Source: Candidatus Moraniibacteriota bacterium | GTDB taxonomy: Bacteria; Patescibacteriota; Minisyncoccia; Moranbacterales; UBA1568 | Assembly (NCBI GenBank): GCA_023261695.1 | Contig: JAHFON010000004.1 | Location: forward strand, 1 to 55,804 | Direction of reading: 5' to 3' | DNA: 55,804 nt | Part shown: piece by piece, positions 15,257 through 32,016 of the stretch | How positions within the stretch are numbered: the first letter of the stretch is position 1 | Layout of the letters: every line of letters starts with the position of its first letter | Position numbers and translations under genes: made by a program | The notes under the pieces: model-generated | Seen by the model: the letters and a program-made list of their open reading frames with translations, nothing else | Told to the model about the DNA's origin: nothing | Database searches by the model: none

Positions 15257-15261
15257 GAAAG

Positions 15262-15663: not shown

Positions 15664-16556
15664 AAAGTTTCAGCGCTTGATATTATTGTAGCACGATTTT
15701 CACGTTTCAGCCACACAAAAATCCCCCCTGCTAAACAAAACACTACAAAAGCAAATATTTGACTCAAAGTAAAAATACCCCAAAATAATCCCAGTTGCGG
15801 ATCCGGTTCGCGGAAAAATTCTACGCAGAAACGCGCCAGAGAGTAAAAGGCCAGATAGGCGCAAGTCAAGGCGCCCGAAAATGGCAGTTTCTTGCGCAAA
15901 AACAGCAGTAAAATAAAAATAACTGCTCCTTCCAAAAAAGCTTCATACAAAGCGGACGGGTGTCGCAAAGTTCCTAGCGGAGCTACTGCCGGAAACACCA
16001 TTCCCCACCCCCGCTCCGTGATCCTGCCGTACAACTCCAGATTGAAAAAATTTCCCAAACGGCCAAAAAATGTCGTGATAGGCGCTAAAAACACCGCAAA
16101 GTCCGCCACTTCCCAAAAGGCCAGAGTTGTCCGTTGAAAATATTTTCTTTGGGAACGCGTGAACCAATACAGTACCAACGCTACGCCCATCAACCCACCA
16201 TAATAGCTCATTCCAGAAATGCCTACCCAGACTCCGCGTTCAAAATCATAAGGCAATAATATTTTTAATGGAGCCTGCCAAAAAACTTCCCCGTTATAAA
16301 AAAGCGCGTAACCGATATGGCCGCCCAGCAAAGCGCCAAAAAAAATGAAGATGAATAAATCAAAAATACACTCTGTGGAACAAGGGGCATCGCCTCGACG
16401 CGCTAACCAAAGCGCGAACAGGAGGGCTACGAAAAACCCTGCCAAAAAAAACACAGCGTACCAGTAAATTGCAAAAAATCCGAACTGAAAAGCAATCGGA
16501 TCCAGCGTCGCCGGAAGATTCTGCCACCAGCTAATCAGACCGCCCATTGTATTCAT
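15657..16556 (-). CDS. lgt: Prolipoprotein diacylglyceryl transferase
   Basis: IAFQFGFFAIYWYAVFFLAGF, YYGGLMG, FFGRLGNFFNLELYGR and HPSALYEAFLEG are the characteristic Lgt motifs. Confidence 0.9.
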   Translation of the reverse strand: MNTMGGLISWWQNLPATLDPIAFQFGFFAIYWYAVFFLAGFFVALLFALWLARRGDAPCSTECIFDLFIFIFFGALLGGHIGYALFYNGEVFWQAPLKILLPYDFERGVWVGISGMSYYGGLMGVALVLYWFTRSQRKYFQRTTLAFWEVADFAVFLAPITTFFGRLGNFFNLELYGRITERGWGMVFPAVAPLGTLRHPSALYEAFLEGAVIFILLLFLRKKLPFSGALTCAYLAFYSLARFCVEFFREPDPQLGLFWGIFTLSQIFAFVVFCLAGGIFVWLKRENRATIISSAETLC

Positions 16557-17598
16557 TCAATTGATCACGAAATTCAATGTTATAAATTTCGCCCAATGCC
16601 AAAAAGAGAGAGACGATGATCGGTCCCATTACAAATCCAGGTAAACCGAAAAGCGATATCCCGCCCAATGTGGCAAAAAATACCATCAATGGATGCATCT
16701 GCGTGTCTTTGCCTACCAGCTTGGGTTTCAAAGTGTTATCAATCACGGAAATAACACCGATACCTACGACCAAAATGAGAATACCTTGCCAGACATTCCC
16801 CAATAACAGCATAATCACACCTACCGGAATCCAAACAATGGCCGCTCCGATCATAGGAATAATTGAGAAAAACATCATCGCCAACCCCCAGATGGCCGCG
16901 GACGGCACACCGGCAATCCAAAAGGCGATACCACCCAAAAAGCCCTGTATAACTCCCACCACGATAGTACCTTTGAGCGTCGCCCGACTAATGGAAGTGA
17001 ATTTTTGAATGAGCAACTGGTCGTGTTCGTTGCGCAAAGGACTGAGCATCATTAAATATTTCAACAGCCGCTTGCCGTCAATCAGAAAATAAAACAGTGT
17101 AAAAAACATCACAAAAACCCAGAAAGCAAAATGCGTGATTCCTTGATAGACCACCTGAAGCAAACCCAAAGCGTTTTGACTAAACTGTCTGATGTCATCC
17201 AAAATATGCGTCTGATTCAATGTTTGAACATCAAAGAAAACATTAGAGTACGGCAAAGAACGTATCGCCTCAATAACTTGATTGATGATCCGCTCTAGCG
17301 CAGACTCTTCGCCCAGCGTGTGATACAGACTATTCGCTTCCACTATCGCAAAGCTCAATATCAAAAAGACCGGAGTGACAATAATCACTACGGCCAACAA
17401 ACACGTCAAAAGCGCACTCCAAGCTTTGCGGCCGCGCGTCCATTTTTCAAACCTATTATAGGAACCCCTGAAAAGATTGGCTAAGATAGACGCGGCCACG
17501 ATAGCCGTCAGAAACGGTTGAAAAATAAAAAACACCACCGTTCCCACCACCAATAAAATCAAAAAAAAGAAATAGACATTAAACGAGCGCAATTGCAT
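16531..17598 (-). CDS. AI-2E family transporter (PerM/UPF0118)
   Basis: The 355-aa polytopic protein has the family-typical C-terminal block IPMIGAAIVWIPV...DNTLKPKLVG...HPLMVFFATLGG...G. Confidence 0.8.
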   Translation of the reverse strand: MQLRSFNVYFFFLILLVVGTVVFFIFQPFLTAIVAASILANLFRGSYNRFEKWTRGRKAWSALLTCLLAVVIIVTPVFLILSFAIVEANSLYHTLGEESALERIINQVIEAIRSLPYSNVFFDVQTLNQTHILDDIRQFSQNALGLLQVVYQGITHFAFWVFVMFFTLFYFLIDGKRLLKYLMMLSPLRNEHDQLLIQKFTSISRATLKGTIVVGVIQGFLGGIAFWIAGVPSAAIWGLAMMFFSIIPMIGAAIVWIPVGVIMLLLGNVWQGILILVVGIGVISVIDNTLKPKLVGKDTQMHPLMVFFATLGGISLFGLPGFVMGPIIVSLFLALGEIYNIEFRDQLNEYNGRSD

Positions 17599-17662
17599 AG
17601 GTTTTTCTAATGTGCTTTAAGTATAGCACTCGCTCCGATTTTTGCCAGTTTAGGACAAAAGG

Positions 17663-18724
17663 TTACTCCATCACTCCCCCGCCCAAACAATACTCACCGT
17701 CATACAGAACCGCGAATTGACCGGGAGCGATGCCGCGATCTTTTTCTTGAAACTTCACCCGCAGGCGGTTATTTTCCAAATATTCAATTTCCGCCGGATA
17801 CATCTTCGCCCCGTGGCGCACCTTGACCGACAATGCCTTTTTTTCAGGCGGTGTACCGGAAATCCAATTACATCCGGAAACCCCAAGTTCATAGCGCGCC
17901 GGCATTTCGTCGCGACCGGCTCTGGAAATGAATATCTCATTGGTTTTTATATTTTTAGCCGCCACATACCATGGGCCGCCGGAGAGATGAATGCCCCGGC
18001 GCTGGCCGACCGTGAAATACCAGAATCCGTTATGTTCGCCCAAAACTTTTTGCGTTTCGTATTCAATCAGTTTCCCCGGCCGCTTGCCCAAGTGATGTTC
18101 CAAAAATTTATCAAAAGGAATTTTCCCCAAAAAACAGATTCCCTGACTATCCTTGCGTTTGGCGTTGGGCAGAGCGAATTGTTCCGCAAGTTTTCTCACT
18201 TCATTTTTTTTAAAATCCCCGATCGGAAAAAGTGCTCTTGCGATCTGGGCCTGCGAAAGCTGCGAAAGAAAGTATGTTTGATCTTTGATCGGATCCGGCG
18301 ACATCTTGAGAAAAGTTGTGCCGTCTTTTTCTTCAACCCGCGCGTAGTGCCCCGTCGCAATTTTGTCGTATTCATTACCCACACAATCATAGAACGCGCC
18401 GAATTTAATCCGTGCATTACACAACATATCGGGATTCGGCGTACGCCCAGCCCGCGCCTCGGAAATAGTGTGATCGATTATTCGCTCTTTATATTCCAGT
18501 TGAAACGGCACAACCTGAAGCGGCACTTGCGCCTGTTCACACACCACGCGAACATATTTCAAATCATCTTCCCACGGACACTCGCCCAAGGAAGACAACT
18601 CATCTTCCAGCCAAATTTTGAGATAAAAAGCGGTAAGTTCGTGCCCTTCCTCCCTCAAAAGACGCAAAGCCACAGAGCTATCCACCCCGCCTGATATCAA
18701 TACCGCGATATTCATATGTGCCAT
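17663..18724 (-). CDS. mnmA: tRNA 2-thiouridine(34) synthase MnmA
   Basis: It has the PP-loop IAVLISGGVDSSVAL, plus TPNPDMLCN, KIATGHYAR, KDQTYFL and DSQGICF motifs. Confidence 0.93.
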   Translation of the reverse strand: MAHMNIAVLISGGVDSSVALRLLREEGHELTAFYLKIWLEDELSSLGECPWEDDLKYVRVVCEQAQVPLQVVPFQLEYKERIIDHTISEARAGRTPNPDMLCNARIKFGAFYDCVGNEYDKIATGHYARVEEKDGTTFLKMSPDPIKDQTYFLSQLSQAQIARALFPIGDFKKNEVRKLAEQFALPNAKRKDSQGICFLGKIPFDKFLEHHLGKRPGKLIEYETQKVLGEHNGFWYFTVGQRRGIHLSGGPWYVAAKNIKTNEIFISRAGRDEMPARYELGVSGCNWISGTPPEKKALSVKVRHGAKMYPAEIEYLENNRLRVKFQEKDRGIAPGQFAVLYDGEYCLGGGVME

Positions 18725-18814
18725 CTCATAGTGTTCCTCAGCATAGGATATTTCGACGAAAAATGGAAGTTGTGGACTCTTTTTATTCTCATAATGATTT
18801 TCGGATCGGAAACG

Positions 18815-18863
18815 AAAAAAGCTCGCAATCTGTTACCACGTAATGTAATAGCGGATCGCGAGC
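18815..18863 (-). terminator. Intrinsic terminator closing the minus-strand defence-like operon
   Basis: The minus strand reads GCUCGCGAUC, a 23-nt loop, then GAUUGCGAGC (10 bp with one G-U pair), followed by UUUUUU. It lies about 115 nt downstream of the 97-aa ORF stop. Confidence 0.6.
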
Positions 18864-18977
18864 TCTTAAACTCGGAATTCCTTTCAGGATGCCCTTTGAG
18901 GCATTTAGTTATTCGGTTGTAATTGCATTATAGCATTGATTAAAAAATCTCCACAAGGACTGGGGTTGTGCATAAGT

Positions 18978-19271
18978 TTATTTAGGCTCTAAAAGCTTCT
19001 CGGCCGGAGATAGGCCATCAAGCAATTTGTGTGGAAAATAATTCCAAGCATCAGTAACCAGCTCGAACACATTACTTAATTCCGAAGCGTCTCCGCCACG
19101 ATCAAACATAGCCACGACTTTCATCATATCATCGTTGTCTTCCTCGTTATAAATGGCGTCCCGAACATGATCCAAAGTGAAATCACTCTCGGTCTCCTTG
19201 AGCATATCCAAAAGCTCCTGCTCAATTTCTTTCCTGCGTTCTAAAATTTGCTGTTGGGATTCGGATTGCAT
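18978..19271 (-). CDS. Small, highly acidic hypothetical protein (97 aa)
   Basis: Hand count gives 24 Asp/Glu against 10 Lys/Arg, including an EEDNDD run. The C-terminus reads WNYFPHKLLDGLSPAEKLLEPK. It is the last gene of the operon, 54 nt after the GHKL gene. I recognise no family. Confidence 0.65.
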   Translation of the reverse strand: MQSESQQQILERRKEIEQELLDMLKETESDFTLDHVRDAIYNEEDNDDMMKVVAMFDRGGDASELSNVFELVTDAWNYFPHKLLDGLSPAEKLLEPK

Positions 19272-19325
19272 AGATTATATTACTGCGCTCTCGCTTGGGC
19301 TGGCGAAATTTTTGGCGTTGCCATT

Positions 19326-20885
19326 TTAAGAACTAAAATCCAATCCGAACATGTCATGAAGCAGTTTTTCAACAATTGAGCGGTAATCTTCTATCTGTGG
19401 ATCAGTAATGTTCGGGGTTGCTCGCTGGTGTATCAGATCGCATCTCAATTTATAATAATGATTTATCTTCTGAATTGTCGCTTGATCAATGTTGATATGT
19501 TTTATTACCTCTCTTTCAACATCAATTCTATTTTCTGCGATATTTTTGAATGTTTGATTTCCGATATTCTTTTCATTTACCAAAAATTCTTTGTAAGCAA
19601 TTTCAATGGTACTATCTAAAATAATTAAACCGATTCGATTTTTTTGAGTTAAGGGAAGTTTTGAAAAAATATCCACGGCCATAATGCTTTCTAATAAGCC
19701 GGCTGTCCATGGTTTTTGAGCAACAATAGCGGCGTTTGCATTCGCAACTTTTTGATGCCACTTTTGTTTACTTGCCGGAGGGGTTGGAAGATAGCTTTTC
19801 GGAATGCTAGTTATTGTGTCTAATTTTTCAGCGACAACATGACCAGTTTTGTGCGGAAATACATTAATATCCCAGCTACCCTGCAAGCTACGAGAAACTT
19901 GGGCATATCTTTTTGTTACATCAATAATGCTTTGCCGGAGAGCCTGAAACACTGGGTGCTTTAAATTAATACCAGATTTACTACTGTCCCATGGCATATC
20001 TCGTGACTGCCCTTTAATATTTACGATGGTTCTTGCGAGAGAAATATTGTAATGAGGATTTCCAATCATACCAGATGAGAACCCCATTGAAAAATCGGTC
20101 AACGCACGGGCGACAAGTCGACTATTACAATACACGAAAACCCCATAGGAATTATCTGGATCCCCAGGATGATCAATTAAACCGGACAAAATCTCAACAT
20201 CCACCTTCCGATCTTCAATTGGAATTTGAGCCGTGAATTTTGTAGGATAAAGATTTGGAGGATATGACCATTGATCATCAAAATTAACTCCAGCTAACTT
20301 ATCGCCATTTACCTTAATTATGGCACCACGATCTAAAAATTTAGCGTATACTTCTGAAAGATGTTTTTTGAAGTTGGTTATTTCATCGGAGGTTAGCTGG
20401 ACTCTTAATTTATTCAGTTCGATCAAAGTAGTATATGGGCTTAACTCTGTTTGAGCTTCAGTATAAGGTAACTGCCAACTATGATCTTGGGCAATCCAGT
20501 GTTCATCAAATTTTACAGTAAAGGTTTTTGCTTTCTCAAATCTCGAATGAATCGCAATATTTTCAGCAAGAGCGATAACGGCTCGTTTACTACCGACGCC
20601 GAAATAACCAATGACATCATCACTGATTTCGTTGCTTGTTTTTCCCGGGCTAACGATGTGATCTAATTTTGATTCTTCAATTCCGCCTGCATTATCCTCT
20701 ATAGAAAGAGTTTGTTGTCTATCGTCAGCAACTATTTTTATTTCTAAGTCTGATCTTTTTCGTTTCGACCAAAGATCAATTGCATTATCAATTAACTCAC
20801 ATAAAGATCGTTTCAAGTCATACTCTGAAATGATTGACAAAAATATTCTTTTTTCTGGTGTTGCGTCTAGTATTTTCGAAGTCAT
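19326..20885 (-). CDS. GHKL-superfamily (MORC/MutL/HATPase_c_3-like) ATPase with C-terminal HEPN-like (Rx4H) domain
   Basis: Bergerat-fold motifs are present: E30-LIDN34-AID (N box), D64-NAGGI (G1) and G93-YFGVGSK (G2). The C-terminal roughly 100 aa is helical and carries YYKLRCDLIHQR (R481-x4-H486, codons 19445-19428), the HEPN RNase signature. The gene is AT-rich; the 60-nt line at 19441 has 16/60 G+C. Confidence 0.7.
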   Translation of the reverse strand: MTSKILDATPEKRIFLSIISEYDLKRSLCELIDNAIDLWSKRKRSDLEIKIVADDRQQTLSIEDNAGGIEESKLDHIVSPGKTSNEISDDVIGYFGVGSKRAVIALAENIAIHSRFEKAKTFTVKFDEHWIAQDHSWQLPYTEAQTELSPYTTLIELNKLRVQLTSDEITNFKKHLSEVYAKFLDRGAIIKVNGDKLAGVNFDDQWSYPPNLYPTKFTAQIPIEDRKVDVEILSGLIDHPGDPDNSYGVFVYCNSRLVARALTDFSMGFSSGMIGNPHYNISLARTIVNIKGQSRDMPWDSSKSGINLKHPVFQALRQSIIDVTKRYAQVSRSLQGSWDINVFPHKTGHVVAEKLDTITSIPKSYLPTPPASKQKWHQKVANANAAIVAQKPWTAGLLESIMAVDIFSKLPLTQKNRIGLIILDSTIEIAYKEFLVNEKNIGNQTFKNIAENRIDVEREVIKHINIDQATIQKINHYYKLRCDLIHQRATPNITDPQIEDYRSIVEKLLHDMFGLDFSS

Positions 20886-20900
20886 AAATTTGTATTGCGT

Positions 20901-21917
20901 TTACTCTTTTATTCGATATTCGCCCGATTCTAATTTAGACACAATTTCTCTAGTGTATACATTAAAGGTTGTAAACGCAGCACCTTTTAATGGCTCATCT
21001 TTTATTTTAAGAAACTTTTTCTTAATGTTTTTATCTACCCCTTTCACGTCATCAATGGTCTTTATGAATACATTTGGCTCATTGCGTAATAAGAACCACT
21101 CTTTATCAGTATCTTTGCTTTTATCCAACATCTCTAAATCCTGTCGTGTCATTTTAGGAAATAGATAGTAGAATTTTTTATCGTAGAAATAATACTTGGT
21201 GAGGAACATTTCGCCAACTGCAATATGGCCTGCTCGTTGAGACCCATCGGTAAAATTTCTTCTGCTTCTCCCAGCATATTTTATAACATAATTATCCTTT
21301 ATTATTGTTGATCTCTTTTTTGCAAACTCTTTCCAGTCTCCGTTGTAAAATTGCTGAAACTTTGCATTAAAAAACTCATGCATCTTTTCGAGGTATTCAT
21401 CCACATAAGCAGAAAATGCCTTCGGGTCGTGATATCGCTTGAGCAAATCCTTCACGACCGCCAGATCGTCGGTGATTAGATATTTACCTCTCTCTACCTT
21501 TGAAGCAAAGTAGGCCATGCCGAATAAATCTGGCTGGATTCTTTGTCTGCCTTTTTTGAGATAGTAAACGCCGACCACGCCGTTTTTCACGGCGCCAAGA
21601 GCGTGATGAAATCTCTGATATAAAGCATTTCCGCCGGAATTCCTGTTGAGTGCATCGGTGCCTTCGAGAGCAAGCACTGGTTTCTTATCGATTTCTTTGC
21701 CGTTCAATCCGTCAACCCACTTCTCGTCGACGTACCACGCCGCATCACACGAACCGTAGGAGACACCATTAAACCCGAATGTGAGGCCGCCTTCGGAGAA
21801 CGGCTTTTGGTCCTCGTTACTGCTCTGAGGGAAAATGCGAAGCTTTACGCCACTCGTCTCGTGTCCGAGGTAGTCGATGATTTCTCTTTTTATTATTTCG
21901 TCACTTGAGTAGGCCAT
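20901..21917 (-). CDS. Hypothetical protein (338 aa), possible second nuclease/specificity subunit of the RM core
   Basis: A clean ATG lies 1 nt after the upstream stop (TAA-T-ATG). No motif is confidently recognised; the candidate acidic cluster is CDAAWYVDE...PVLALEGTDAL. The C-terminal half is Lys-rich. G+C drops sharply inside the ORF near 21,400. Confidence 0.6.
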   Translation of the reverse strand: MAYSSDEIIKREIIDYLGHETSGVKLRIFPQSSNEDQKPFSEGGLTFGFNGVSYGSCDAAWYVDEKWVDGLNGKEIDKKPVLALEGTDALNRNSGGNALYQRFHHALGAVKNGVVGVYYLKKGRQRIQPDLFGMAYFASKVERGKYLITDDLAVVKDLLKRYHDPKAFSAYVDEYLEKMHEFFNAKFQQFYNGDWKEFAKKRSTIIKDNYVIKYAGRSRRNFTDGSQRAGHIAVGEMFLTKYYFYDKKFYYLFPKMTRQDLEMLDKSKDTDKEWFLLRNEPNVFIKTIDDVKGVDKNIKKKFLKIKDEPLKGAAFTTFNVYTREIVSKLESGEYRIKE

Positions 21918-21918
21918 A

Positions 21919-23001
21919 TTATAGGGATTTAATTTTTTCTAATATTGCCTCGGTTTCAAGCCCAAGGACGAAACTGACGAGGTCCGACTCTTTGTTTATT
22001 TCCTCGTCCTTAACTTCAAGATAGAACCGTTTGAGCTCATCGTTCGTAAGATTTGCAATCAGATAGAACTTTATGTAATTTCCGATCCAGACAGTGTATT
22101 TCTCACGGGACAAGGAATTCTTTGGTTCGTATTTTGCTTCAGGAAGTGTGATCTTTATCTTGTAATCGGAATCAAGCGTGATCAGACCGAAATAATCCTT
22201 TGACGGTTTTGCTTTGGTCGGGCAGATTTCAAAGCCCCGATCAAAGAGTCCGGTATTGAGATATTTCTCCAATTGCTTGGTCATGACGACTGTCCCGGTC
22301 TTTGCTTCACCTACGATGAAATCGTGCGTTACGTGTCCTGCATCAGACTTGACTTGATTTTTGAAATTCCGGATGAGCGCCAGCTCAATCATATGGAAAC
22401 CCTCGCTCGGCAGATATCCGTAGTTGCTTATTTTGGTGATAATTTCGCCGAGTCCATAACCAGCAAAATCCGGCGATCCAATGGCGTGGGCAAGCGGAAT
22501 CTGGTTCTCGACAATGAAGCCGAGATGTCTGAAATATTCACCGGCAAGGTACTCCATGAACGGTTCCATGCCGTTGCCTTGCTTGCTGGTCTCGATTCTT
22601 TGGATAATGTAGTTTTCACGGTTCTTGAGCGAGACGAATTTTGCCCGAAGCATCTCATTCAGTTTTTCTTCGGATTTAAACTCGACAGGAACGATCAATT
22701 TGTCGCCCTCAAAAAGATATTCCTTTGCACGGGAGAGAATAAAAGGTGTGTTCTTTAAAACGCCATTGTCAAAAATACCCGAAACGAATTTGTAGTTGAA
22801 GGCGTTGTAGAAAAGCTTCATTAAACCCTTGGGAGTGAACGGATAAATTGGGTTCTCAAGATATCCGGCACCGGTGATGCTACTGTAGATAAAAGCATCT
22901 TTGGCTGGCATCTTCACGGCCTTGCCCAGTTCAGTCTCGACAATCTCAAAACTAAAATTGGCTTTAAATATTTTGAAAAAATCTTCTTTGTGTATTTCCA
23001 T
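21919..23001 (-). CDS. PD-(D/E)xK-type nuclease, candidate restriction endonuclease
   Basis: The layout is core helix, PD, then ExK: EPFMEYLAGEYFRHLGFIVENQ ... IGSPDFAGYG ... HDFIVGEAKTG. The ORF-track start at 23094 is a TTG lying inside the upstream gene. I use ATG 23001 (MEIHKEDFF), 4 nt after the upstream TAA. Confidence 0.65.
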   Translation of the reverse strand: MEIHKEDFFKIFKANFSFEIVETELGKAVKMPAKDAFIYSSITGAGYLENPIYPFTPKGLMKLFYNAFNYKFVSGIFDNGVLKNTPFILSRAKEYLFEGDKLIVPVEFKSEEKLNEMLRAKFVSLKNRENYIIQRIETSKQGNGMEPFMEYLAGEYFRHLGFIVENQIPLAHAIGSPDFAGYGLGEIITKISNYGYLPSEGFHMIELALIRNFKNQVKSDAGHVTHDFIVGEAKTGTVVMTKQLEKYLNTGLFDRGFEICPTKAKPSKDYFGLITLDSDYKIKITLPEAKYEPKNSLSREKYTVWIGNYIKFYLIANLTNDELKRFYLEVKDEEINKESDLVSFVLGLETEAILEKIKSL

Positions 23002-23005
23002 ATGT

Positions 23006-24619
23006 TTAAATGCGTTCAAATTTAAATAATGCTTGTTGAGCAAACTTGTTGCTTTTCTGGGCGGTATCGTGTAAAAGTTTGGTGATGCGCTCAATATTTA
23101 GCTTTTCATGGTTTGCTACCTGAGCTCCGTCAAAAATTTTACTGATCACCATACCAACAAAAAGATCGTACCCCTTATTGAGATTAAAAAGCTTCCCGTT
23201 GTGCTCGCCCAAGTATTCAGTAATTTCGTTGGCAACCTCTTCAGGTGAGACAGTCTTTTTATTTGATATTTTTGTTTCCTTTTTTCGGTTCTTAAACGTG
23301 ACGTAGAAATCGGACTTGGGAGAGAACTTCGCCCAATTTTTGTTATAAGGACTGCCGAACGTGTCGTAAGACGAGATGTCAACAAGTTCCATGCCGCTGT
23401 CTCTGATTAGCTCTGCTAAGCTAACCCAAATCCTCAAGTCTTTATTCTGGAATGCGAGCGTGAAATAAGCATCTTTCTTAAGAACCCTCGAAACCTCGCT
23501 GATAAAAGATGCCAGCTGGTTGTTATATTCGTTCAAACCTTTGTTCTGAACTGGATTGATGATGACTTCTTTCTCGATATCAAATTCTTTTTCAAGCCAG
23601 CAATTCCAGATGTACGATAGCTCTGAATATTGGATCGTATCGCCGTAAGGCGGATCGGTGATGAGATAGTCCACACTTCCCGGATCAATCTCGATCATTT
23701 TGAGCGACGATTTGTTATAAACTTTCGCTTCTTGATCCTTGATTTTGTTTCGGTCGGCTCTTTCAGCAACAACCTCTTTGGCCGTCTTTACGTTGTTGAA
23801 TCGATCCATAAATCTCCACCAGACGTTCTCCTCGATAAAGTCATCAGGAATCCAAAAATTATTTACACCAAGAGGACGGACGTTTTCAGCCTTGAGCTTG
23901 CTGACGTGAAGCAGTGTGTTGGTAAAAGCCAACATGAACAGATTGCGATGCTTGAGTGGCAAATCGTGAATAGCGTTGTAGAGCATGGCCAGAGACAGAA
24001 TGTTGCGTTTCGTGAACATATCCGACACCTTCTTCACGCCCTTATAAGAAAAACGGTCTTTGTAGAATTTATTCGGAAAATTCTTGTCCGGATACTTTAA
24101 ATCTTTGGGGAAGCGTACCGACGGCTCGAGGTCATTCTTTGAAAGAGTGACTTTCCGTTTGTTTCGGAAATTCTCGTCTGCGATGACTGCGTTATAGTCT
24201 TTACTATTTTTCTTGCCCAAAATCGTATAGAGGATGTACTTATCCTTCGTCTTGTAGATCTTCATTATTTTTTCGCTGACAGCTTTTTCGATTTTTCCGA
24301 ACTCCTCGTCAAATGATTCCGGATTATGTTTTATATCCAAAGAATTTTTAGCCAGAAAAGCGGCGAACGGATTGAGGTCGTAGCCGACGAATTTACGGCC
24401 AGCGAGCACAGACTGCAAACCGATGATTCCACTACCGCAAAACGGGTCCAAGACAAGATGACCTTTCTTGGAATATTTATCGACGTATCGATCAATCACG
24501 AACCATGGCTTGCGTGACCAGTACTTGTGGAGTTTTGCAAGCTTAGAATATCTGCGATCGTGATCAATGCTGTTCACGTCAACGAGATTATTTACGATTT
24601 TTGGCAATGTTAACGACAT
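23006..24619 (-). CDS. DNA methyltransferase, DPPY type (N6-adenine/N4-cytosine family), with a large insert between motifs I and IV
   Basis: HKYWSRKPW...LVLDPFCGSGIIG (AdoMet motif I) lies at about residue 60. DYLITDPPYGD (catalytic motif IV) lies at about residue 325. The roughly 260 aa between them is the presumed target-recognition domain. Confidence 0.85.
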   Translation of the reverse strand: MSLTLPKIVNNLVDVNSIDHDRRYSKLAKLHKYWSRKPWFVIDRYVDKYSKKGHLVLDPFCGSGIIGLQSVLAGRKFVGYDLNPFAAFLAKNSLDIKHNPESFDEEFGKIEKAVSEKIMKIYKTKDKYILYTILGKKNSKDYNAVIADENFRNKRKVTLSKNDLEPSVRFPKDLKYPDKNFPNKFYKDRFSYKGVKKVSDMFTKRNILSLAMLYNAIHDLPLKHRNLFMLAFTNTLLHVSKLKAENVRPLGVNNFWIPDDFIEENVWWRFMDRFNNVKTAKEVVAERADRNKIKDQEAKVYNKSSLKMIEIDPGSVDYLITDPPYGDTIQYSELSYIWNCWLEKEFDIEKEVIINPVQNKGLNEYNNQLASFISEVSRVLKKDAYFTLAFQNKDLRIWVSLAELIRDSGMELVDISSYDTFGSPYNKNWAKFSPKSDFYVTFKNRKKETKISNKKTVSPEEVANEITEYLGEHNGKLFNLNKGYDLFVGMVISKIFDGAQVANHEKLNIERITKLLHDTAQKSNKFAQQALFKFERI

Positions 24620-24620
24620 G

Positions 24621-25643
24621 TTATTTCTTTTGGAAAATTAAGCAGTAGTGATGAAGGATGTTGCTTGCCCATGCGGCCGGATAACCATATGGCGCAAGAC
24701 CAACCTTATCCTGTATCCAAATTTTCTCATCTTTAAGCACGTACTTTTTCGAAAGAATTCGTGCTAAGTCCCAGGCCAATGGATACATCGTGCCTTCTTT
24801 TTTTACGTTCTTCACAATGACCACCAAGTAACTGCCGTTCTTGAGTAGGTCGTAGATGTCAAAATAAATCTTGGCGACTCTTTCAAGGAATACTTCGTAA
24901 TTATCGACATTGCCCAAGTCCTCTTCGTGCTCTGAGTAATTAACATCAAAGCCGTTCTTGGTGCGCTTAGTGCGGAAATCCTTCGTGCTTCGGTTTAGAA
25001 CATTCCAATACGGAGGCGACGAGATAGAGAAGGCCATCTTCGGCAAATCGAGTTTTTTGATGTTCTCGGCATTCTCGTTGAAAATACTCTTTTTGAATTC
25101 GGGAGTTCTCTTCAGTGACAGATCGTAGTATTTTTTGTTTAGTTCGATTCCATACCCGATGCGGCCAGTACGCTTGCAAGCAACAAGGGTACTTCCAATG
25201 CCACAGAATGGGTCCAAAACATTCTCTCCTTTTTTTGTGAAAAATTTCACAAAGTCCTCAATCATTGTTGGGGAGTATGTCGCCGGATGATCCTGCGTGT
25301 TCGATGAAATTTCTCTCTCTTCCTTTAAATCTTTCTGTAGAGCATTGAAAATAAACCAACTACAGCTGAATTTTATCCACTCTTTGCCCGTCAGTTCATT
25401 CAACGGATTGGAAAGGTCATAAGCACCATCTTCGGGGTTGATCAGGATCGCATTTGCATTATCAAGCTCGCCGCCGGGGTTATATAAAGCGACTTCATCC
25501 CATCTTTCCAAAAAATGATCTGGAATCAGATTCTTTTTGGTTTTTAGAAATTCAGCGAGCTTCTTTTTTGCTTGCTTGTTTTTTTTCTCGTCCGGAACTG
25601 GGACGACCTGCTTTTTATCTTTGAGGTAAAAATAATTTTTCAT
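24621..25643 (-). CDS. DNA methyltransferase, SPPY type (N4-cytosine/N6-adenine family), motif I before motif IV
   Basis: DHPATYSP...VLDPFCGIGST (motif I) is followed by FSISSPPYWN (motif IV), with a C-terminal IWIQDK...HHYCLIFQK block. The stop and next start are spaced TAA-C-ATG. Confidence 0.85.
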   Translation of the reverse strand: MKNYFYLKDKKQVVPVPDEKKNKQAKKKLAEFLKTKKNLIPDHFLERWDEVALYNPGGELDNANAILINPEDGAYDLSNPLNELTGKEWIKFSCSWFIFNALQKDLKEEREISSNTQDHPATYSPTMIEDFVKFFTKKGENVLDPFCGIGSTLVACKRTGRIGYGIELNKKYYDLSLKRTPEFKKSIFNENAENIKKLDLPKMAFSISSPPYWNVLNRSTKDFRTKRTKNGFDVNYSEHEEDLGNVDNYEVFLERVAKIYFDIYDLLKNGSYLVVIVKNVKKEGTMYPLAWDLARILSKKYVLKDEKIWIQDKVGLAPYGYPAAWASNILHHYCLIFQKK

Positions 25644-25654
25644 ATACTAACAAG

Positions 25655-26317
25655 TTATATTAGATTTCCATCCTTGAAGCTAAAATAGCTGTTTCTCGTA
25701 ACAATAATATGATCAATCACTTCTATACCCAAAATTAAACCCGCTTCTGTTAGCTGTTTGGTTGTAGCCAAGTCTTCCTCTGACGGTTCTGGGTCTTCAG
25801 AGGGATGATTGTGGGCAATAATAACCTGCGCAGCCAGATGCCGAACAGCTGGCTCGAATACTTCTCGCGGATGGACAAGATTGGTGTTAAGTGATCCGAC
25901 CGAAACGACCTCCCGTTTAATCTCTTGATTTCTGGAATCCAAAAAGAAAATAACGAAATGTTCTTTTTTATTGTCACGAATATCTTTGAGTTCGTTCCAA
26001 ACATCCTGGGGGGATAAAAGCAGAATTGATTTCTTGTTTTGTAAATGCCGACGACCAAGTTCAAAGCAGGCGACAATCTCGGAGGCCTTTGCGCTACCAA
26101 GACCAAATGTATTTTTCAATTCTTTGACTGAAGCCTTAGCCAAACCTGCACCGCTGAATTTCCTTAAAATCTTACCGGATAACTCAACAACATTGATGCC
26201 CTCGCTTCCTGTTCGTAAAAGAATCGCCAAAAGTTCCGAATCCGAAAGCCGCTCGGGACCGTACTTTTCGAGTTTCTCTCTTGGCCTATCAACTTTTGGC
26301 AAATCTTTTATTTTCAT
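25655..26317 (-). CDS. radC: RadC-family JAB/MPN domain protein
   Basis: The N-terminus reads RPREKLEKYGPERLSDSELLAILLRTGSEG (HhH region). The JAMM motif AHNHPSEDPEPSEEDLATTKQL is present. The 220-aa length is canonical. Confidence 0.85.
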   Translation of the reverse strand: MKIKDLPKVDRPREKLEKYGPERLSDSELLAILLRTGSEGINVVELSGKILRKFSGAGLAKASVKELKNTFGLGSAKASEIVACFELGRRHLQNKKSILLLSPQDVWNELKDIRDNKKEHFVIFFLDSRNQEIKREVVSVGSLNTNLVHPREVFEPAVRHLAAQVIIAHNHPSEDPEPSEEDLATTKQLTEAGLILGIEVIDHIIVTRNSYFSFKDGNLI

Positions 26318-26321
26318 AAAT

Positions 26322-27593
26322 TTACTTTACTAAGTCTTCAAGCAACCATTTCCATAGTGGCTTGAACTGTATGGTTTTTCCATCCTTCTTGACTTCGCGC
26401 TCTTCGTCCCATGTCAGCACGGTAAGTTTATTAACTTTCAATTCCTCGCTTGCTTCAAATAATGCTTTTGTCTCACGTTGTTCCACGTCGGAATTTCTCA
26501 AATCGTAGCAAACTTGAATAAGTTCAGATGTCTGGTAACCATTACGGATTGCAAAGTCAACCTCTCGACCGTTGCGAGTCTTGTAATAAAACAATTCCCG
26601 GTTCGGCTCAAAACATTTTTTCACCAGTTCGGTAAAAACCAGATTCTCCATGAGTTTGCCATTGTCGGGAGAATGTTGAACAGCCTTAGATGTGACGAAG
26701 CCGTTATCAACCGTGTAAATCTTTTTTGGCGAGCGGAGACGTTCACCGGCTTTTGCGGAAAAACCGGAGAGAGAAAATACAACGTACGCTTCTTCAAGAT
26801 ATTTAAGATACCGCTCAAGGGTCACGCCGCTTTTAAATTTCAAAATATTCGCGAGCTTCCGGAAACTGTATTGATTAGAAACATTATTTATCAAGTATGA
26901 GCCGAGCTGGTCTATTTGCTCGGAAAAACGAACCTTGTGGCGCTTTACAACGTCCTTAAATAACAATGCGTCAAAGAGTACATCCAAATAACCCCGCGGA
27001 TGTTGATTTTTTATCACCACTTCCGGAAAGCCGCCGAACGCCATGTATTGTTCGAGCAACTTCAACAGTTCTGATTTTTGATCAAGCTGGGAAAAGTTTT
27101 TAGCTTTGAGAAATTCGTGAAAATCGAATGGCAATATTTCTATCGGCAGATGTCTTCCGGTCAAATGGGTCGCAAGTTCCATCGACAAAAGATTGGCGTT
27201 TGATCCGGTTAGCACGAGATTATACCCTCCTCGATGCAGACGGTTGGCAAACAACTCCCAGCCCTTTAGGTTTTGTATTTCATCAAACAAAACAAACTTA
27301 GTATCTCCGTAGAACCGATGCAATTCGTCCGTTAGTGCATATAAGTCTAATTTCTCTCCCACCAAACCCGGGTCATCAAAATTGAAGTAGGCAAATTTTT
27401 GGTCTTTGAGCATCATGAGAGAAAAAACCGATTTGCCGGCGCGACGTGGACCGAGAATGACTTTTATCAAATCTGAAGACATCCACTTGGGCGCATCTTT
27501 CAGCTTCGTCCTCTCCACATAATCCAAACCAGCTAGGGCTTCTTTCTCCCCGTTTTGCTTGGATATTAGCTCTTGTAACTTGCTTTTTTGCAT
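26322..27593 (-). CDS. AAA-family ATPase with DUF4143-type C-terminal domain
   Basis: Walker A is ILGPRRAGKSVF and Walker B is FVLFDEIQN. The C-terminal portion (EVDFAI...) is typical of the archaeal/CPR ATPase-DUF4143 family. It is the first gene of the co-directional block. Confidence 0.75.
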   Translation of the reverse strand: MQKSKLQELISKQNGEKEALAGLDYVERTKLKDAPKWMSSDLIKVILGPRRAGKSVFSLMMLKDQKFAYFNFDDPGLVGEKLDLYALTDELHRFYGDTKFVLFDEIQNLKGWELFANRLHRGGYNLVLTGSNANLLSMELATHLTGRHLPIEILPFDFHEFLKAKNFSQLDQKSELLKLLEQYMAFGGFPEVVIKNQHPRGYLDVLFDALLFKDVVKRHKVRFSEQIDQLGSYLINNVSNQYSFRKLANILKFKSGVTLERYLKYLEEAYVVFSLSGFSAKAGERLRSPKKIYTVDNGFVTSKAVQHSPDNGKLMENLVFTELVKKCFEPNRELFYYKTRNGREVDFAIRNGYQTSELIQVCYDLRNSDVEQRETKALFEASEELKVNKLTVLTWDEEREVKKDGKTIQFKPLWKWLLEDLVK

Positions 27594-27644
27594 AGTATTT
27601 TAATCATATTAAGCATTATTTGCCTTTTTTGCTCATTACAAGTA

Positions 27645-28655
27645 TTATAGTATGCATAAAAGGGAAATACAAGAGGTGTCCTGATGCTTCATAAGAAATT
27701 CCTCTATGCTTTTTTCTACCGCTTCAACATTATGGCATTGCATCAATTGCGCGCGCAATTCTTTAGCTTGTGGAAAATGATTCGCATACGCCTGATAATG
27801 TTTTTTCATCAATTCAAAACCTTTCATATTTCCCCAGACTTCTTCAAATAACTTCGTGTGTTCAACGGCAACACGTAATTTTTCTTCTACTGTTACGTTC
27901 TGCTTTTCCTTGTCAAACAGCCACGGATTGCCGAATATCGCGCGGCCGAGCATCACCCCGTCACAACCAGTTTCACGTACTTTGCTTTCCGCGTCGGCAA
28001 GATCTGTCACATCGCCATTGCCGATGATAAGAGTGCCGCTCCCCCGCGCAATCTCCACGGCTCTCCTTAATCTCTCCCAGCGCGCCGGCACTTGGGACAT
28101 TTCTTTTTTGGTGCGCGCATGCACCGTAATCGCCGCGGGTTTTGCTTCCATTAGATTTGGAAGCCAGGTTTCTAAATTATCTTCGTTGAATCCGAGACGC
28201 GTCTTTACAGAAATAGGCAATTCCTTACCGGCCGCCTTTGATCCTTCACGCGTGGCAATTATCAATTGTTTCGCCAGTTCCGGGTTTCGCATACACATCG
28301 CTCCCGCGCCCTGTTTCATCACGTTTTTATCCGGGCATCCCATATTGATATCAATACCATCAAAACCCAGTTCAGTCACAAGTTTCGCCGCTAAAAACAT
28401 TTTCTCGGGATGCGCCGTAAAAAGTTGTGTGACTATAGGCCGCTCACTTTCGGTAAACCACAAGTCACGAAGCAATGCCCATCGCCCCTGCGGATGGCAA
28501 AGTCCTTCCGCCGAAACGAATTCCGTCCAAACCACATCCGGCTTTCCATACATGGCAATCACGCGGCGAAAAACCGCGTCCGTGACATTAGCCATCGGCG
28601 CCGATACAAAAAACGGCTTCTTCAGCGTTTCCCAAAATCCGAGATGTGGCTTCAT
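27645..28655 (-). CDS. tRNA-dihydrouridine synthase (Dus family)
   Basis: FVSAPMANVTDAVFRRV, GIDINMGCP, VKTRLG and AITVHARTK are Dus/FMN TIM-barrel motifs. Confidence 0.9.
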   Translation of the reverse strand: MKPHLGFWETLKKPFFVSAPMANVTDAVFRRVIAMYGKPDVVWTEFVSAEGLCHPQGRWALLRDLWFTESERPIVTQLFTAHPEKMFLAAKLVTELGFDGIDINMGCPDKNVMKQGAGAMCMRNPELAKQLIIATREGSKAAGKELPISVKTRLGFNEDNLETWLPNLMEAKPAAITVHARTKKEMSQVPARWERLRRAVEIARGSGTLIIGNGDVTDLADAESKVRETGCDGVMLGRAIFGNPWLFDKEKQNVTVEEKLRVAVEHTKLFEEVWGNMKGFELMKKHYQAYANHFPQAKELRAQLMQCHNVEAVEKSIEEFLMKHQDTSCISLLCIL

Positions 28656-28667
28656 ATCACAAATAAC

Positions 28668-29405
28668 TCAACTAATCCGCGCCAATTCATCACGCAAAAG
28701 CATCAGCATTTCCCGCTTCAGCGTTTTCCGTACGCGAGAAAACGTATCATAGGGAAGAAGCACGTTCAGGTCTTGATTTATCACCTTGTCCGTCACATGG
28801 GTCTCAATAAATTTAATCAGGTCAGCAAAAAATATGTCTGTATCTTTGCCTGTGCGCTCTCTGATTACCTCTTCGTTATACCTAAGTCCATTCAGAAAGA
28901 AATGACGAATGTCATATACATCACGTCCGGCAATTGACTCGTGCTTATCATAGCGATCCATAAGCGCAACAAGTTTATTAGCTAGCATAGTGTCTGGTGT
29001 TTGACAAAAAATGATGCGGTCAATTTCAGAAAATCTCCGCGCTTCATAACGATTTGATTTCGGAGGCGGAAATGTAGCGTCCACTTTAAGCGTATTTCGT
29101 TCGCCCTCTTTCGCTTCATACTTCAAAAAGTATTGAAGCGCAACTTTACTCTGGTCTCGCACTATAAGCGAAAGATTCCGAAAAATTATCTCCATCCGGC
29201 GGCGCGTCTCTGGAATATCTTTTTTTTCCCCCGTAAAATCAAAGTCAAGATCTACAGAAAAGCGGTCAAGAAGTCCAAGCATCGCAGCGCATGTTCCTCC
29301 TTTGAACGCAATTCTACTCGCAATAAAAGCGTCATCGCTTATCCCTGTAAGCGTTCGGAATAGCCATGCTTTATGAATTGCGTCTTTTGGGTTTGGAAGA
29401 ATCAT
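28668..29405 (-). CDS. AbiEii/AbiGii-family nucleotidyltransferase toxin (type IV TA / abortive infection)
   Basis: FKGGTCAAMLGLLDRFSVDLDFDF is the hallmark NTase motif of the AbiEii (DUF1814) family. It sits directly downstream of an AbiEi-like gene. Confidence 0.8.
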   Translation of the reverse strand: MILPNPKDAIHKAWLFRTLTGISDDAFIASRIAFKGGTCAAMLGLLDRFSVDLDFDFTGEKKDIPETRRRMEIIFRNLSLIVRDQSKVALQYFLKYEAKEGERNTLKVDATFPPPKSNRYEARRFSEIDRIIFCQTPDTMLANKLVALMDRYDKHESIAGRDVYDIRHFFLNGLRYNEEVIRERTGKDTDIFFADLIKFIETHVTDKVINQDLNVLLPYDTFSRVRKTLKREMLMLLRDELARIS

Positions 29406-29416
29406 GGCAGTTGTTT

Positions 29417-30067
29417 CTATATTCGCTGGGTATATCGTTCTGGGGTAAGCGGATACCCGACGTGCTCTTGCAAGGATTTTACTTTTTCCCAGTCAACAAG
29501 AGCGGCGCCATCAAGATAAATATGGCGGTGAAAATACAGGATGTCGGCAACGGCGCGCTCGACAGATGCTTTGCGAACACCGTTAACCTCCGTCACAATC
29601 CCGTCAGATTGATATAAAAACTTATCAGCAAGTTTGCGCGAAAGGTAGCGGCTATCCCCGACAGAAAAATGTTTAGTCGCCATCCCCACCAAAGTCACGG
29701 CGGAAAGCGTTTGCTGGATGATTCCATTCTCAATAAGGATTGTCTCCGTGCTCACATACGCATACCCGTGAAGCGCCTTGATACCAAGAAGAAGCCGATC
29801 AACTTCTCCAATCGGTTTGATAGCATAAAATCCTTTATAGATACGGAACAAAAGCCCCTGCCGTACATATCGCTTGAGCGTGGTATAAAGCGTGTTGCTG
29901 TTTTGGATTCCCCACAAGTTCGCCAGGTCTTTCGTATGAAAAATCATCTCTCCAATTTTTGCTAAATCAGAAAACCGCTTCAAATATTGGCTTTTTGACC
30001 CAACCTTTACGCCTATGCTTCTATTTGTGATTGTTTTATCTGTACTCATAAGTACAGGATAAATCAT
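29417..30067 (-). CDS. AbiEi-family antitoxin/transcriptional regulator
   Basis: The N-terminal wHTH-like block FHTKDLANLWGIQNSNTLYTTLKRYVRQGLLFRIYKGFYAI is typical of AbiEi. It is paired with AbiEii with an 11-nt gap. Confidence 0.75.
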   Translation of the reverse strand: MIYPVLMSTDKTITNRSIGVKVGSKSQYLKRFSDLAKIGEMIFHTKDLANLWGIQNSNTLYTTLKRYVRQGLLFRIYKGFYAIKPIGEVDRLLLGIKALHGYAYVSTETILIENGIIQQTLSAVTLVGMATKHFSVGDSRYLSRKLADKFLYQSDGIVTEVNGVRKASVERAVADILYFHRHIYLDGAALVDWEKVKSLQEHVGYPLTPERYTQRI

Positions 30068-30234: not shown

Positions 30235-32016
30235 ATGTTAAAGTCTCCGGAACAATTTGATTTTTCTAAAAAACAAGATCAACAAAAGTTTGATAGATTA
30301 CCAGTAGAAGAGAAAGGGTCTGTTGCGGAGGAAGCATTTGATGAAGCGGCTTTAATAAACAACATGGTTGCTAACGATTTGTGCGGTAGTTATACGGTAG
30401 CTGATAGAATTGTAGAGAAACTAAAATCAAATAAGGGTTTTTCTGCAGAAGTCGCTAATAAGGCTGTAGAAACAGCACAAAAGATTGACGATGAATTAAT
30501 GGAAGTTAAGTTTAACAAATCCGAAATAGAGACGTCATTGAAACGCATTTCTAAAAAAAAGAAAGAATTGTTGGATGCATCTAAATTTTTTGTTTCCGAT
30601 TGTCACGAGGCTAGCAGGGCTGTTTTTTTAGAACATCTTTCGCAAATATATCCGGAATTAGTAACTATAGCCAGCCAAATAGAAGAAGACAAACTTATTC
30701 CTTTCTCTTCAGAAGATTGGAAACAAAACAAACAACGATCTGATGAAAACTATACGCTATTGCGAGAAAAAATAATCTCGTTGGCTTCAAACATTGAAGA
30801 ACGTTTATCTTTGACATTGGCATTAAATGCTCTTGATAATTTAGATAGGCGTGCCTGGAATCCTATGATGGCAAGCTCTCCGGCAGAATTTGTTAAAGCA
30901 GTAAGTAATATGGGGCTAAAAAAATATTTCAAAAAAGAGATAAACTATAAGACCTATAATGAGTATGATCTTGATACCACACAATATCATTTTGATTGGT
31001 GGGATAGTGAGATAATGCACAAACTGATTAAAAAAGTAGGGTTATTGAATAAAGAAGATGCAGGAAAATATATAGGTTACTTTGAACAACTGGTATCATT
31101 AAAAGACGAAGAGGAAAAATTAAACAAAAGAAAAGAAAATTTACAAAAAAAAAGAGATGTCCAGCGTTCTTTGTGCACTCTTGGTTTTAACTTAGGAATA
31201 TTAAATGAAAAATCATGGGCGGCGGGATTTATTGATAACGATGAATCGCGACGCATAAAAGACTTGGTATTTGATGAAAAAGAACAACTAGTAGCATACA
31301 TTAAAAGTGTTTCTAATCATAGCGCGGCGTTTAGCGGATCTGGCGGGTCGGAATATGGCACCAAAATTGTGGTTTTTAGAGATAATCCAAGCAACCAAGT
31401 TTCTGAATATGTGAAATGGCGAGACGCCTACAGCGCGAGCAGGGATAATCCCGCATTAGATTTTGATAAAATTGAAATTGCCGGAATTACAGCTGATACT
31501 GTAAGCGTTCATTTATTTACTCAAGGATCGCATATTCACACAATTGAGTTTCCATTAAAGAAATCAGCAAAAAAGGAGAGGGTTGTTTTTAGTGAAGAAG
31601 AATCTGAAAAATGGCTGGGTGATTACAAAAAAATTGAAGAAGAAACGAGGAAATCAAGTGGCATAAAAGGTTTTATGCCAGTATATGTAGATCTTAAATA
31701 TTACGAAGGCCCCTCCCTTGCTGTCGGGGAGGATACGTCCAGGATGATTCCTTACCGCGAACCAATGGTTCTTAATCGCAAAGTGAATGAAAAGTTGGGA
31801 ATAGGCACGTTTGTTGTTATGTCCCAGATTGATCATGATATGTGGAAAGGAAAAGAATTCAGATATGAGGGCTGGGGCATTGATCGATCTGGCAAGAAAA
31901 CAAGATTATTCCTGCAAAACGCCTATGAGGATCAATTGCGTGGCAGCAGCAGAGTTGCTATTGATGTTACTGCCGAAGAGCTCTTTGAGCGTATGCAAAA
32001 AGAATTAGAGAAATAA
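30235..32016 (+). CDS. Hypothetical protein (593 aa), no recognised domain
   Basis: A long clean ORF in an AT-rich segment; the line at 30241 has 16/60 G+C. The N-terminal half looks helical or coiled-coil (charged heptad-like runs) and the C-terminal half looks beta-rich. There is no signal peptide, no transmembrane helix and no catalytic motif that I recognise. Confidence 0.7.
   Translation: MLKSPEQFDFSKKQDQQKFDRLPVEEKGSVAEEAFDEAALINNMVANDLCGSYTVADRIVEKLKSNKGFSAEVANKAVETAQKIDDELMEVKFNKSEIETSLKRISKKKKELLDASKFFVSDCHEASRAVFLEHLSQIYPELVTIASQIEEDKLIPFSSEDWKQNKQRSDENYTLLREKIISLASNIEERLSLTLALNALDNLDRRAWNPMMASSPAEFVKAVSNMGLKKYFKKEINYKTYNEYDLDTTQYHFDWWDSEIMHKLIKKVGLLNKEDAGKYIGYFEQLVSLKDEEEKLNKRKENLQKKRDVQRSLCTLGFNLGILNEKSWAAGFIDNDESRRIKDLVFDEKEQLVAYIKSVSNHSAAFSGSGGSEYGTKIVVFRDNPSNQVSEYVKWRDAYSASRDNPALDFDKIEIAGITADTVSVHLFTQGSHIHTIEFPLKKSAKKERVVFSEEESEKWLGDYKKIEEETRKSSGIKGFMPVYVDLKYYEGPSLAVGEDTSRMIPYREPMVLNRKVNEKLGIGTFVVMSQIDHDMWKGKEFRYEGWGIDRSGKKTRLFLQNAYEDQLRGSSRVAIDVTAEELFERMQKELEK

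Follow-up and report, generated by a model that had tools for sequence, protein, structure and literature searches.

Does a run of tightly packed, co-directional genes in an ultra-small bacterium amount to one immune system, or to several that have come to lie side by side? The question is raised by a block of eight minus-strand genes (18978–27593) in a stretch of 55,804 nucleotides (nt) from Candidatus Moraniibacteriota bacterium (contig JAHFON010000004.1), hereafter the window, in whose forward-strand coordinates all positions are given. The block joins two DNA methyltransferases (MTases) and two candidate nuclease subunits to a fusion of a GHKL ATPase with a predicted C-terminal HEPN RNase domain (GHKL-HEPN). 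An earlier, sequence-only reading had taken all eight genes for a single system in which methylation-based discrimination commands an RNase arm. We instead favor, with a probability of roughly 0.7, the view that the block is a composite island of separately mobile defense modules, comprising a restriction–modification (RM) cassette with a split BsmI-like nuclease and a portable GHKL-HEPN gene that would act as a second line. This view builds on direct observations of gene content, conservation, co-occurrence, folds with their active-site motifs, and compositional mosaicism. The features of the block, in the order of transcription and with lengths in amino acids (aa), are as follows:

26322–27593, minus strand: ATPase of 423 aa with AAA_14 and DUF4143 domains (Pfam, 2.4e-28 and 1.7e-24; PADLOC PDC-S01)
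25655–26317, minus strand: RadC (JAB/MPN), 220 aa (Pfam RadC, 1.1e-41; NCBIfam equivalog NF000642, 5.4e-69, 232 bits)
24621–25643, minus strand: M1, DNA MTase of 340 aa with an SPPY motif IV (SISSPPYW; Pfam N6_N4_Mtase, 1.1e-23; PADLOC MTase_II, 6.4e-30)
23006–24619, minus strand: M2, DNA MTase of 537 aa with a DPPY motif IV (LITDPPYG; Pfam N6_N4_Mtase, 5.9e-18; PADLOC MTase_II, 2.5e-51)
21919–23001, minus strand: R360, predicted nuclease subunit of 360 aa with a canonical PD-(D/E)xK site
20901–21917, minus strand: R338, predicted nuclease subunit of 338 aa, similar to the N-terminal (bottom-strand) nicking domain of BsmI
19326–20885, minus strand: GHKL (paraMORC-like) ATPase–HEPN fusion, 519 aa (Pfam HATPase_c_3, 1.2e-13; C-terminal Rx4H)
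18978–19271, minus strand: acidic protein of 97 aa (isoelectric point 4.3; 24 D+E against 10 K+R)
18815–18863, minus strand: intrinsic terminator 3′ of the acidic gene (RNAfold hairpin of −27.6 kcal/mol followed by U6)

The company that these genes keep elsewhere is the chief evidence. A scan with R338 against one genome per species gave 43 RM loci (39 with enough flanking sequence to judge), which we compared with 80 species-level loci for the GHKL-HEPN gene and 80 genome loci for the acidic gene. M1, M2, R360 and R338 occur together in all 39 judgeable RM loci, mostly in the same order, with R360 always adjoining R338 and with M1 at 58–86% identity in every one of them. None of these 39 loci contains the GHKL, acidic or AAA ATPase gene. 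R360, R338, the AAA ATPase and the acidic gene are in turn absent from all 80 GHKL loci (by tblastn and, for the acidic gene, a family hidden Markov model (HMM)), and neither the GHKL-HEPN gene nor the RM cassette was found in any of the 80 acidic-gene loci. Thus, the model of one integrated system, in which methylation-based discrimination would be coupled to an abortive arm, GHKL-HEPN, via the AAA ATPase, RadC, the 338-aa “orphan” and the acidic protein, already stands contradicted by these co-occurrences and is scarcely tenable; its “orphan”, moreover, is accounted for as a predicted nuclease subunit.

The features that lend that model its appeal belong to the layout of the block, which was described accurately in the sequence-only reading: the open reading frames (ORFs) of all eight genes lie on the minus strand where it had placed them, with intergenic gaps of 4, 11, 1, 4, 1, 15 and 54 nt and with TAA-N-ATG junctions between M1 and M2 (TAACATG) and between R360 and R338 (TAATATG). 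R360 is taken from an internal ATG at 23001; its longest ORF, from a TTG at 23094, would overlap M2. There are no terminator-like sites on the minus strand in the intergenic gaps of 18978–27593, and the single strong terminator at the end of the block is as described, even though a simple scanner overlooked it owing to its long loop. To these points may be added the presence of RadC upstream of the cassette in 8 of the 39 judgeable RM loci. However, the same packing runs on through dus and the AbiEii-containing pair, which prolong the minus-strand run with gaps of 51, 12 and 11 nt, and through the downstream housekeeping genes. The whole run covers 10489–30067, with 22 consecutive genes that include the housekeeping lgt, AI-2E permease, mnmA and dus, and the median co-directional gap across the window is 17 nt. 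Hence, spacing cannot delimit a functional unit at 18978–27593, and in streamlined genomes of the candidate phyla radiation (CPR) tight co-directional packing is no evidence of one. The GC content at third codon positions (GC3) also forms a mosaic across the block, with a value of 0.29 in the GHKL-HEPN gene versus 0.45–0.52 in the four adjacent RM genes.

Other elements of the sequence-only reading fared variously. Its domain calls (AAA/DUF4143, RadC, the SPPY and DPPY MTases and GHKL) agree with Pfam, PADLOC, NCBIfam and the translations, and the defense-island context is real. The composition that it did not recognize has a published precedent in the GHKL (paraMORC)–HEPN fusions of RM neighborhoods, which were reported in 2013 and likened to PrrC/RloC (PMC3710099). 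The set as a whole has no whole-system match in PADLOC, where PDC-S01, the generic MTase_II, mad2 and PglX alone are hit; its parts are nevertheless of described kinds, both the cassette nuclease and the GHKL-HEPN family being variants of known ones. Conserved linkage of the GHKL-HEPN and acidic genes to MTase or nuclease genes, whose absence would by that reading have counted against its model, is wanting in part, in that neither gene is conservedly linked to the present MTase–nuclease set. We also considered an assignment to MADS or BREX and rejected it: among the eight proteins the MTase domains alone match the respective PADLOC models (mad2 at 8e-9 and 9e-13; PglXI at 1e-46), and the other components sought (mad1, mad3–8; PglZ, BrxC, BrxL and so on) are absent.

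The restriction–modification cassette and its candidate nuclease

R338 and R360 belong to two widespread families of “hypothetical proteins”, with 542 homologs for R338, all unannotated, and 364 for R360, at identities of 50–92%. Neither protein has a match in Pfam, PADLOC or NCBIfam, and sequence-level searches of the PDB with the single proteins and with profiles gave nothing useful. The structure model of R338 made with AlphaFold2 (AF2) is of high confidence (predicted local distance difference test score (pLDDT) 92.4; predicted template-modeling (TM) score 0.90), and its best four PDB matches in Foldseek are the 2025 structures of BsmI (E 1.3e-5, probability 1.00, TM 0.45); BbvCI and the BspD6I small subunit rank lower. 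The alignment of its homologs shows invariant D58, E85 and Q101-R102. Thus, the protein that the sequence-only reading had left as an orphan would give the restriction enzyme its second catalytic subunit. For R360 that reading had called a PD-ExK nuclease, and the motif proved invariant in 32 homologs (P177-D178, E232 and K234); its AF2 model (pLDDT 83) finds PD-(D/E)xK-type folds as its best Foldseek matches, namely 3dnx (probability 1.0), CdiA-CT and Bax1.

Two catalytic sites, two MTases and the BsmI-like fold of R338 together lead us to read M1-M2-R360-R338 (20901–25643) as what looks like a Type IIS/IIT RM system with a heterodimeric two-site nuclease, effectively a split BsmI. In such a system an asymmetric site would be protected on one strand by M1 and on the other by M2, with their strand specificity presumed, and R338 and R360 would form a heterodimer in which each subunit nicks one strand. 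This assignment of the two hitherto unannotated families is new and would give them a candidate function; natural nicking enzymes with strand specificity, and a new asymmetric specificity, might be obtained from the R338/R360 pair.

The cassette is found in a wide range of hosts, including Patescibacteria, Omnitrophota, Bacteroidota, Firmicutes, the Cyanobacteria-like Gastranaerophilales and DPANN archaea, and serine or tyrosine recombinases often stand beside it. It has only two matches in 2.9 million viral contigs, and the GHKL-HEPN gene likewise has only two full-length matches there; hence, a phage origin can be set aside, neither being mainly phage-borne.

Just 3′ of the cassette lies a slot whose content varies. 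In the window it is taken by GHKL-HEPN; elsewhere it houses an AAA_13 ATPase of 792 aa (L083:11038-13416), SMC_N ATPases of 929–960 aa, GmrSD, unknown proteins of 1052–1156 aa and integrases (loci examined: L081:11034-14504, L083:11038-13416, L089-L091 at ~11019-13901 and L102:9189-11087). Such varied accessory proteins fit a layered-defense layout. AAA_13 is the Pfam family to which PrrC belongs. A search of the large slot proteins for a HEPN domain gave no match to the HEPN profile, and the 792-aa AAA_13 protein has no Rx4-6H motif, so that these proteins are not shown to be PrrC-like nucleases.

The GHKL-HEPN family and its neighborhoods

The GHKL-HEPN protein of the window has 555 full-length homologs at 45–90% identity, spread over many bacterial and archaeal phyla. 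In an alignment of 24 members, all match both HATPase_c_3 and HATPase_c, and the motifs of the Bergerat fold are invariant (E30/N34, D64-x-G67-G68 and G93-x-x-G96-x-G98). The C-terminal Rx4H that the sequence-only reading had pointed out is invariant as well (R481-x4-H486) and is preceded by a near-invariant E428-x3-K432, in which K432 is invariant and E428 is present in at least 90% of members. The HEPN_RiboL-PSP model (PF18735) is matched by 4 of the 24 (best E 6.9e-6), the Ymh model PF09509 by none at E <= 1, and the N-terminus gives no ABC/AAA_13 match. For the window protein, the predicted HEPN assignment follows from these motifs and from its homologs. PDB searches by sequence, with the single protein and with a profile, gave nothing useful. 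PADLOC v2 has no match to this compact single gene, which in its closest relatives stands behind five unrelated RM systems, and no family-level NCBIfam model covers its family. We found no experimental work in the literature on a GHKL-HEPN defense protein. Also new here is the delineation of a predicted RiboL-PSP-type GHKL-HEPN family, which appears to behave as a portable module at the tail of immune systems based on DNA modification.

The closest relatives (80–100% identity) lie directly 3′ of five non-homologous RM systems, at distances of 1–95 nt. These are, respectively, the BsmI-like cassette of the window, which the GHKL-HEPN gene follows after 15 nt; a pair of N6_N4 MTase and MutH-like genes (84%-identical relatives, 23–24 nt); an EcoRI-type MTase with a GmrSD_N/HNH protein (86%, 29 nt); a RadC–m5C (5-methylcytosine) MTase fusion with an NgoFVII-type restriction endonuclease (REase) and Vsr (81%, 1 nt; L210); and a Type ISP enzyme with a FokI-domain protein (80%, 95 nt). 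Two other close relatives are placed after SieB (P0011) and between a TraG-like gene and a recombinase (P0019). The more distant members are found in dndBCDE clusters (six loci), with Type I RM, in BglII/BamHI/Mrr loci and in one HerA-NurA-MTase locus, often with integrases nearby. The association hence reaches beyond methylation-based systems to the DNA phosphorothioation clusters. In the dnd loci (L048, L057, L058, L060, L062 and L074) the GHKL-HEPN gene, at ~40–44% identity, is inside or adjoins the genes for DndB, C, D and E. We could call the GHKL ORF in 74 of the 80 loci, and all-against-all clustering of its neighbors revealed no cluster common to the 74, a conserved helicase partner included; the block in the window has no helicase either.

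The composition of the gene tells a similar story. Its GC3 of 0.29, against 0.45–0.52 in the adjacent RM genes, indicates that it was acquired separately from the cassette. Its overall GC content is 0.367 versus 0.443 for the whole window, all relatives examined have a GC3 of 0.27–0.30, and these values suggest that the gene was transferred recently, the donor having a GC content of about 35%.

On this basis, GHKL-HEPN is probably a portable accessory gene, one that joins many unrelated immune systems based on DNA modification at their 3′ end. Its GHKL ATPase would serve as an ATP-driven dimerization switch that keeps the C-terminal HEPN RNase off; upon sensing of infection, or of the failure of restriction, the HEPN domains would pair, cleave tRNA or mRNA and abort the infection, providing a second line of defense as PrrC does beside EcoprrI. 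Since a near-identical protein stands behind five unrelated RM systems, coupling through specific protein contacts is unlikely and a common signal is more plausible, for which DNA ends, unmodified DNA and anti-restriction factors such as DNA mimics are candidates. Taken to its conclusion, this would make GHKL-HEPN a promiscuous “guardian” that can be plugged in behind Type II, IIS, IIG and Type I RM as well as dnd systems, senses a common signal of restriction or of its failure and fires an ATP-gated HEPN RNase. We advance this as a tentative proposal, one that in so complete a form is more probably wrong than right by a good measure. What survives of the sequence-only reading is its idea of a GHKL-HEPN gene tied to RM as an RNase-based abortive arm, which gains support from the five RM systems upstream of the closest homologs; its casting of this as one system with the rest of the block does not survive.

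A rather different interpretation dispenses with cross-talk altogether: GHKL-HEPN might be an autonomous single-gene defense, a sensor-effector resembling VcSduA/Shedu type I-D, whose proximity to RM genes reflects island clustering or a permissive insertion site. It is in keeping with the lack of a conserved partner in the 74 loci, with the many loci that have no nearby RM gene (P0019 and P0011 among them), with a composition distinct from that of the adjacent RM genes and with the implausibility of specific contacts between a near-identical protein and five non-homologous RM systems. There are also precedents, both for independent defense genes embedded in other systems (bioRxiv 10.1101/2024.01.29.577857) and for single-gene GHKL–nuclease defense (PMC12137116). 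Against it, of the seven closest relatives examined, five follow the final gene of an RM operon in the same direction and after 1–95 nt, invariably at the 3′ end, a regularity that exceeds loose co-location in islands; moreover, that the family turns up repeatedly in dnd and Type I loci points to DNA-modification systems specifically. We therefore hold full autonomy to be unlikely, though a possibility to be reckoned with. Far less probable is that GHKL-HEPN is a MORC/MutL-like DNA clamp that aids the restriction enzyme, for example by looping from the recognition to the cleavage site, with its HEPN domain reduced to a non-catalytic binder of nucleic acids. The GHKL core is indeed of the HATPase_c_3 type common to MORC and MutL, and the gene keeps company with those for Vsr, m5C MTases and REases, as is described for MORC and paraMORC (PMC2292703). 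However, the catalytic Rx4H and Ex3K signatures are kept across 45–100% identity, a point in favor of an active RNase; the RM cassette needs no GHKL-HEPN to be complete and is widespread in its absence; and a helicase partner is lacking.

Several observations weigh against the composite reading with its second-line gene. By raw neighbor counts, no more than about a quarter to a third of the 74 species-level loci have an RM or dnd gene within two genes of GHKL-HEPN, the rest being situated among housekeeping or mobile-element genes; the coupling to RM may thus be facultative or merely positional. The window protein itself falls below significance for the Pfam HEPN models, the profile of the C-terminal region has no match in the PDB, and a single Morc6_S5 match (E 0.028) among the 24 members is all that speaks for an S5/transducer domain. 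On the side of the cassette, the fold search with R360 returned generic PD-(D/E)xK matches alone and no BsmI, and neither R360 nor R338 has sequence-level similarity to any solved REase in the PDB.

If the guardian proposal were true, epigenetic immunity would possess a second layer that is generic and can be transferred between systems, and that works in ultra-small Patescibacteria and DPANN archaea too. In any event, the position of GHKL-HEPN makes the long-standing prediction of paraMORC-HEPN proteins as PrrC analogs directly testable and offers a case for the study of layered immunity.

The remaining genes of the island and its surroundings

The first gene of the block codes for the AAA_14/DUF4143 ATPase, which matches the PADLOC PDC-S01 model PDLC04787 at 4.2e-103 over residues 24–420 of its 423. 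This gene is in none of the 80 GHKL loci and none of the 43 RM loci, and is a separate single-gene candidate defense module outside the RM cassette.

RadC, in turn, is a recurrent and optional neighbor of the cassette and likewise a separate module. In the eight loci mentioned above (L081, L082, L086, L090-L092, L096 and L104) a RadC or RadC-like gene is directly upstream of M1, sometimes overlapping it by a few bases; in L210, whose RM operon also ends in GHKL-HEPN, RadC is fused to the m5C MTase (2742–4478); and in L169 an 89%-identical RadC is directly upstream of the acidic gene with no RM genes between them. A functional link between RadC and RM may thus be real but optional.

The 97-aa protein is acidic, as had been noticed, and belongs to a family of 274 homologs whose genome loci are almost all from Patescibacteria. 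Across the CPR classes its members are 60–93% identical and share the motif DAWNYFPHKxLxGLSPAE; TPR proteins of about 300 aa also carry a member of the family as their C-terminal domain. The gene is typically the last in variable, tightly packed co-directional operons, being preceded elsewhere by genes for PD-(D/E)xK and Fic proteins, Type I/III restriction, m5C MTases, AbiEii and HerA. The protein has no PADLOC match. We evaluated it as an antitoxin of GHKL-HEPN or, as in the sequence-only reading, its partner, and rejected this in light of its absence from all 80 GHKL loci by tblastn and the family HMM; the same HMM finds no member in the 43 RM loci. It is instead a gene spread across the whole Patescibacteria lineage, in which it borders variable islands, and it may mark the edge of a hotspot for such islands. 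Among the acidic-gene loci (L124-L203), many matches have a contig end less than 1 kb upstream.

Several other features of the window deserve mention. The AbiEii-containing pair (28668–30067, minus strand) consists of a 245-aa AbiEii protein (PF08843) and, upstream of its gene, a 216-aa gene for which no Pfam match is on record; the latter pairs with AbiEii-like genes in several acidic-gene loci from Patescibacteria (L141, L154, L169 and L178). At the strand switch beyond the pair, an ORF of 593 aa (30235–32016, plus strand), also with no Pfam match on record, occupies an AT-rich stretch (GC 0.34–0.38) with positive GC skew. The RNA-element scan found no Rfam family and no tRNA in 18978–27593; the sole RNA match in the window is a tmRNA (8802–9207, plus strand; Rfam RF00023, 107 bits), for which ARAGORN gives the tag peptide ANFITKAKNAFAQAFAPSFAPALA.

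Comparison with known systems

For the cassette nuclease, the closest known systems are the monomers BsmI and Mva1269I, Type IIS enzymes that each have two active sites, and the heterodimers BsrDI, BtsI and BbvCI. BsmI combines a variant bottom-strand site (90-PD-X17-E-X12-QR-123) with a canonical top-strand site (527-PD-X17-E-X-K-548), and enzymes of its type are viewed as the fusion of an ancestral heterodimer (PMC11889245). The D...E...QR site of R338, the subunit structurally closest to BsmI, parallels the bottom-strand domain, and R360 has a canonical PD...ExK site like that of the top-strand domain. The two differ from BsmI in their motif spacers (X26/X15 in R338 and X53 in R360, versus X17/X12 and X17) and in forming two near-equal chains of 360 and 338 aa in place of one of 676 aa, and R360 does not match the C-terminal domain of BsmI in the fold search. 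Unlike the similarly sized R360 and R338, the subunits of BsrDI and BtsI, which cleave as heterodimers, are a large and a small one (PMC1950550). As expected of an RM system with an asymmetric site, the cassette nuclease comes with two MTases.

On the side of GHKL-HEPN, paraMORC1–5 were described in 2008, with a proposal of looping between recognition and cleavage sites (PMC2292703), and the fusions of paraMORC with Ymh HEPN domains in RM neighborhoods were proposed in 2013 to be analogs of PrrC/RloC, with a latent RNase as a second line of defense (PMC3710099). The present family shares with these the intact N-terminal Bergerat motifs, a predicted C-terminal Rx4H HEPN domain, RM neighborhoods and lateral movement. 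It differs in that the predicted HEPN domain is of the RiboL-PSP type (PF18735) and not Ymh (PF09509), in the absence of an SFII helicase or Z1-type partner beside it, and in being found both within dnd clusters and by itself on mobile elements.

VcSduA (Shedu type I-D, the former paraMORC3) likewise joins, in one chain, a GHKL ATPase at the N-terminus to a nuclease effector at the C-terminus, and experiments have shown that its anti-phage activity requires residues of both the ATPase and the PD-(D/E)xK nuclease (PMC12137116). Its effector is a DUF4263 DNase of the PD-(D/E)xK fold, whereas that of GHKL-HEPN is a predicted HEPN RNase, and VcSduA restricts phage directly, without abortive infection.

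PrrC, beside EcoprrI, and RloC are the functional counterparts that the proposed second-line role brings to mind: in the model for these proteins, a latent suicide RNase is released when restriction is compromised (PMC3710099). Like GHKL-HEPN, they combine an NTPase with a HEPN RNase domain at the C-terminus, and their genes lie in or beside an RM locus. The NTPase of GHKL-HEPN has the GHKL fold and not the ABC (Rad50/SbcC-like) fold, so that the analogy is one of function only; and where PrrC goes with a specific Type Ic partner, GHKL-HEPN is found with Type II, Type I and dnd systems alike.

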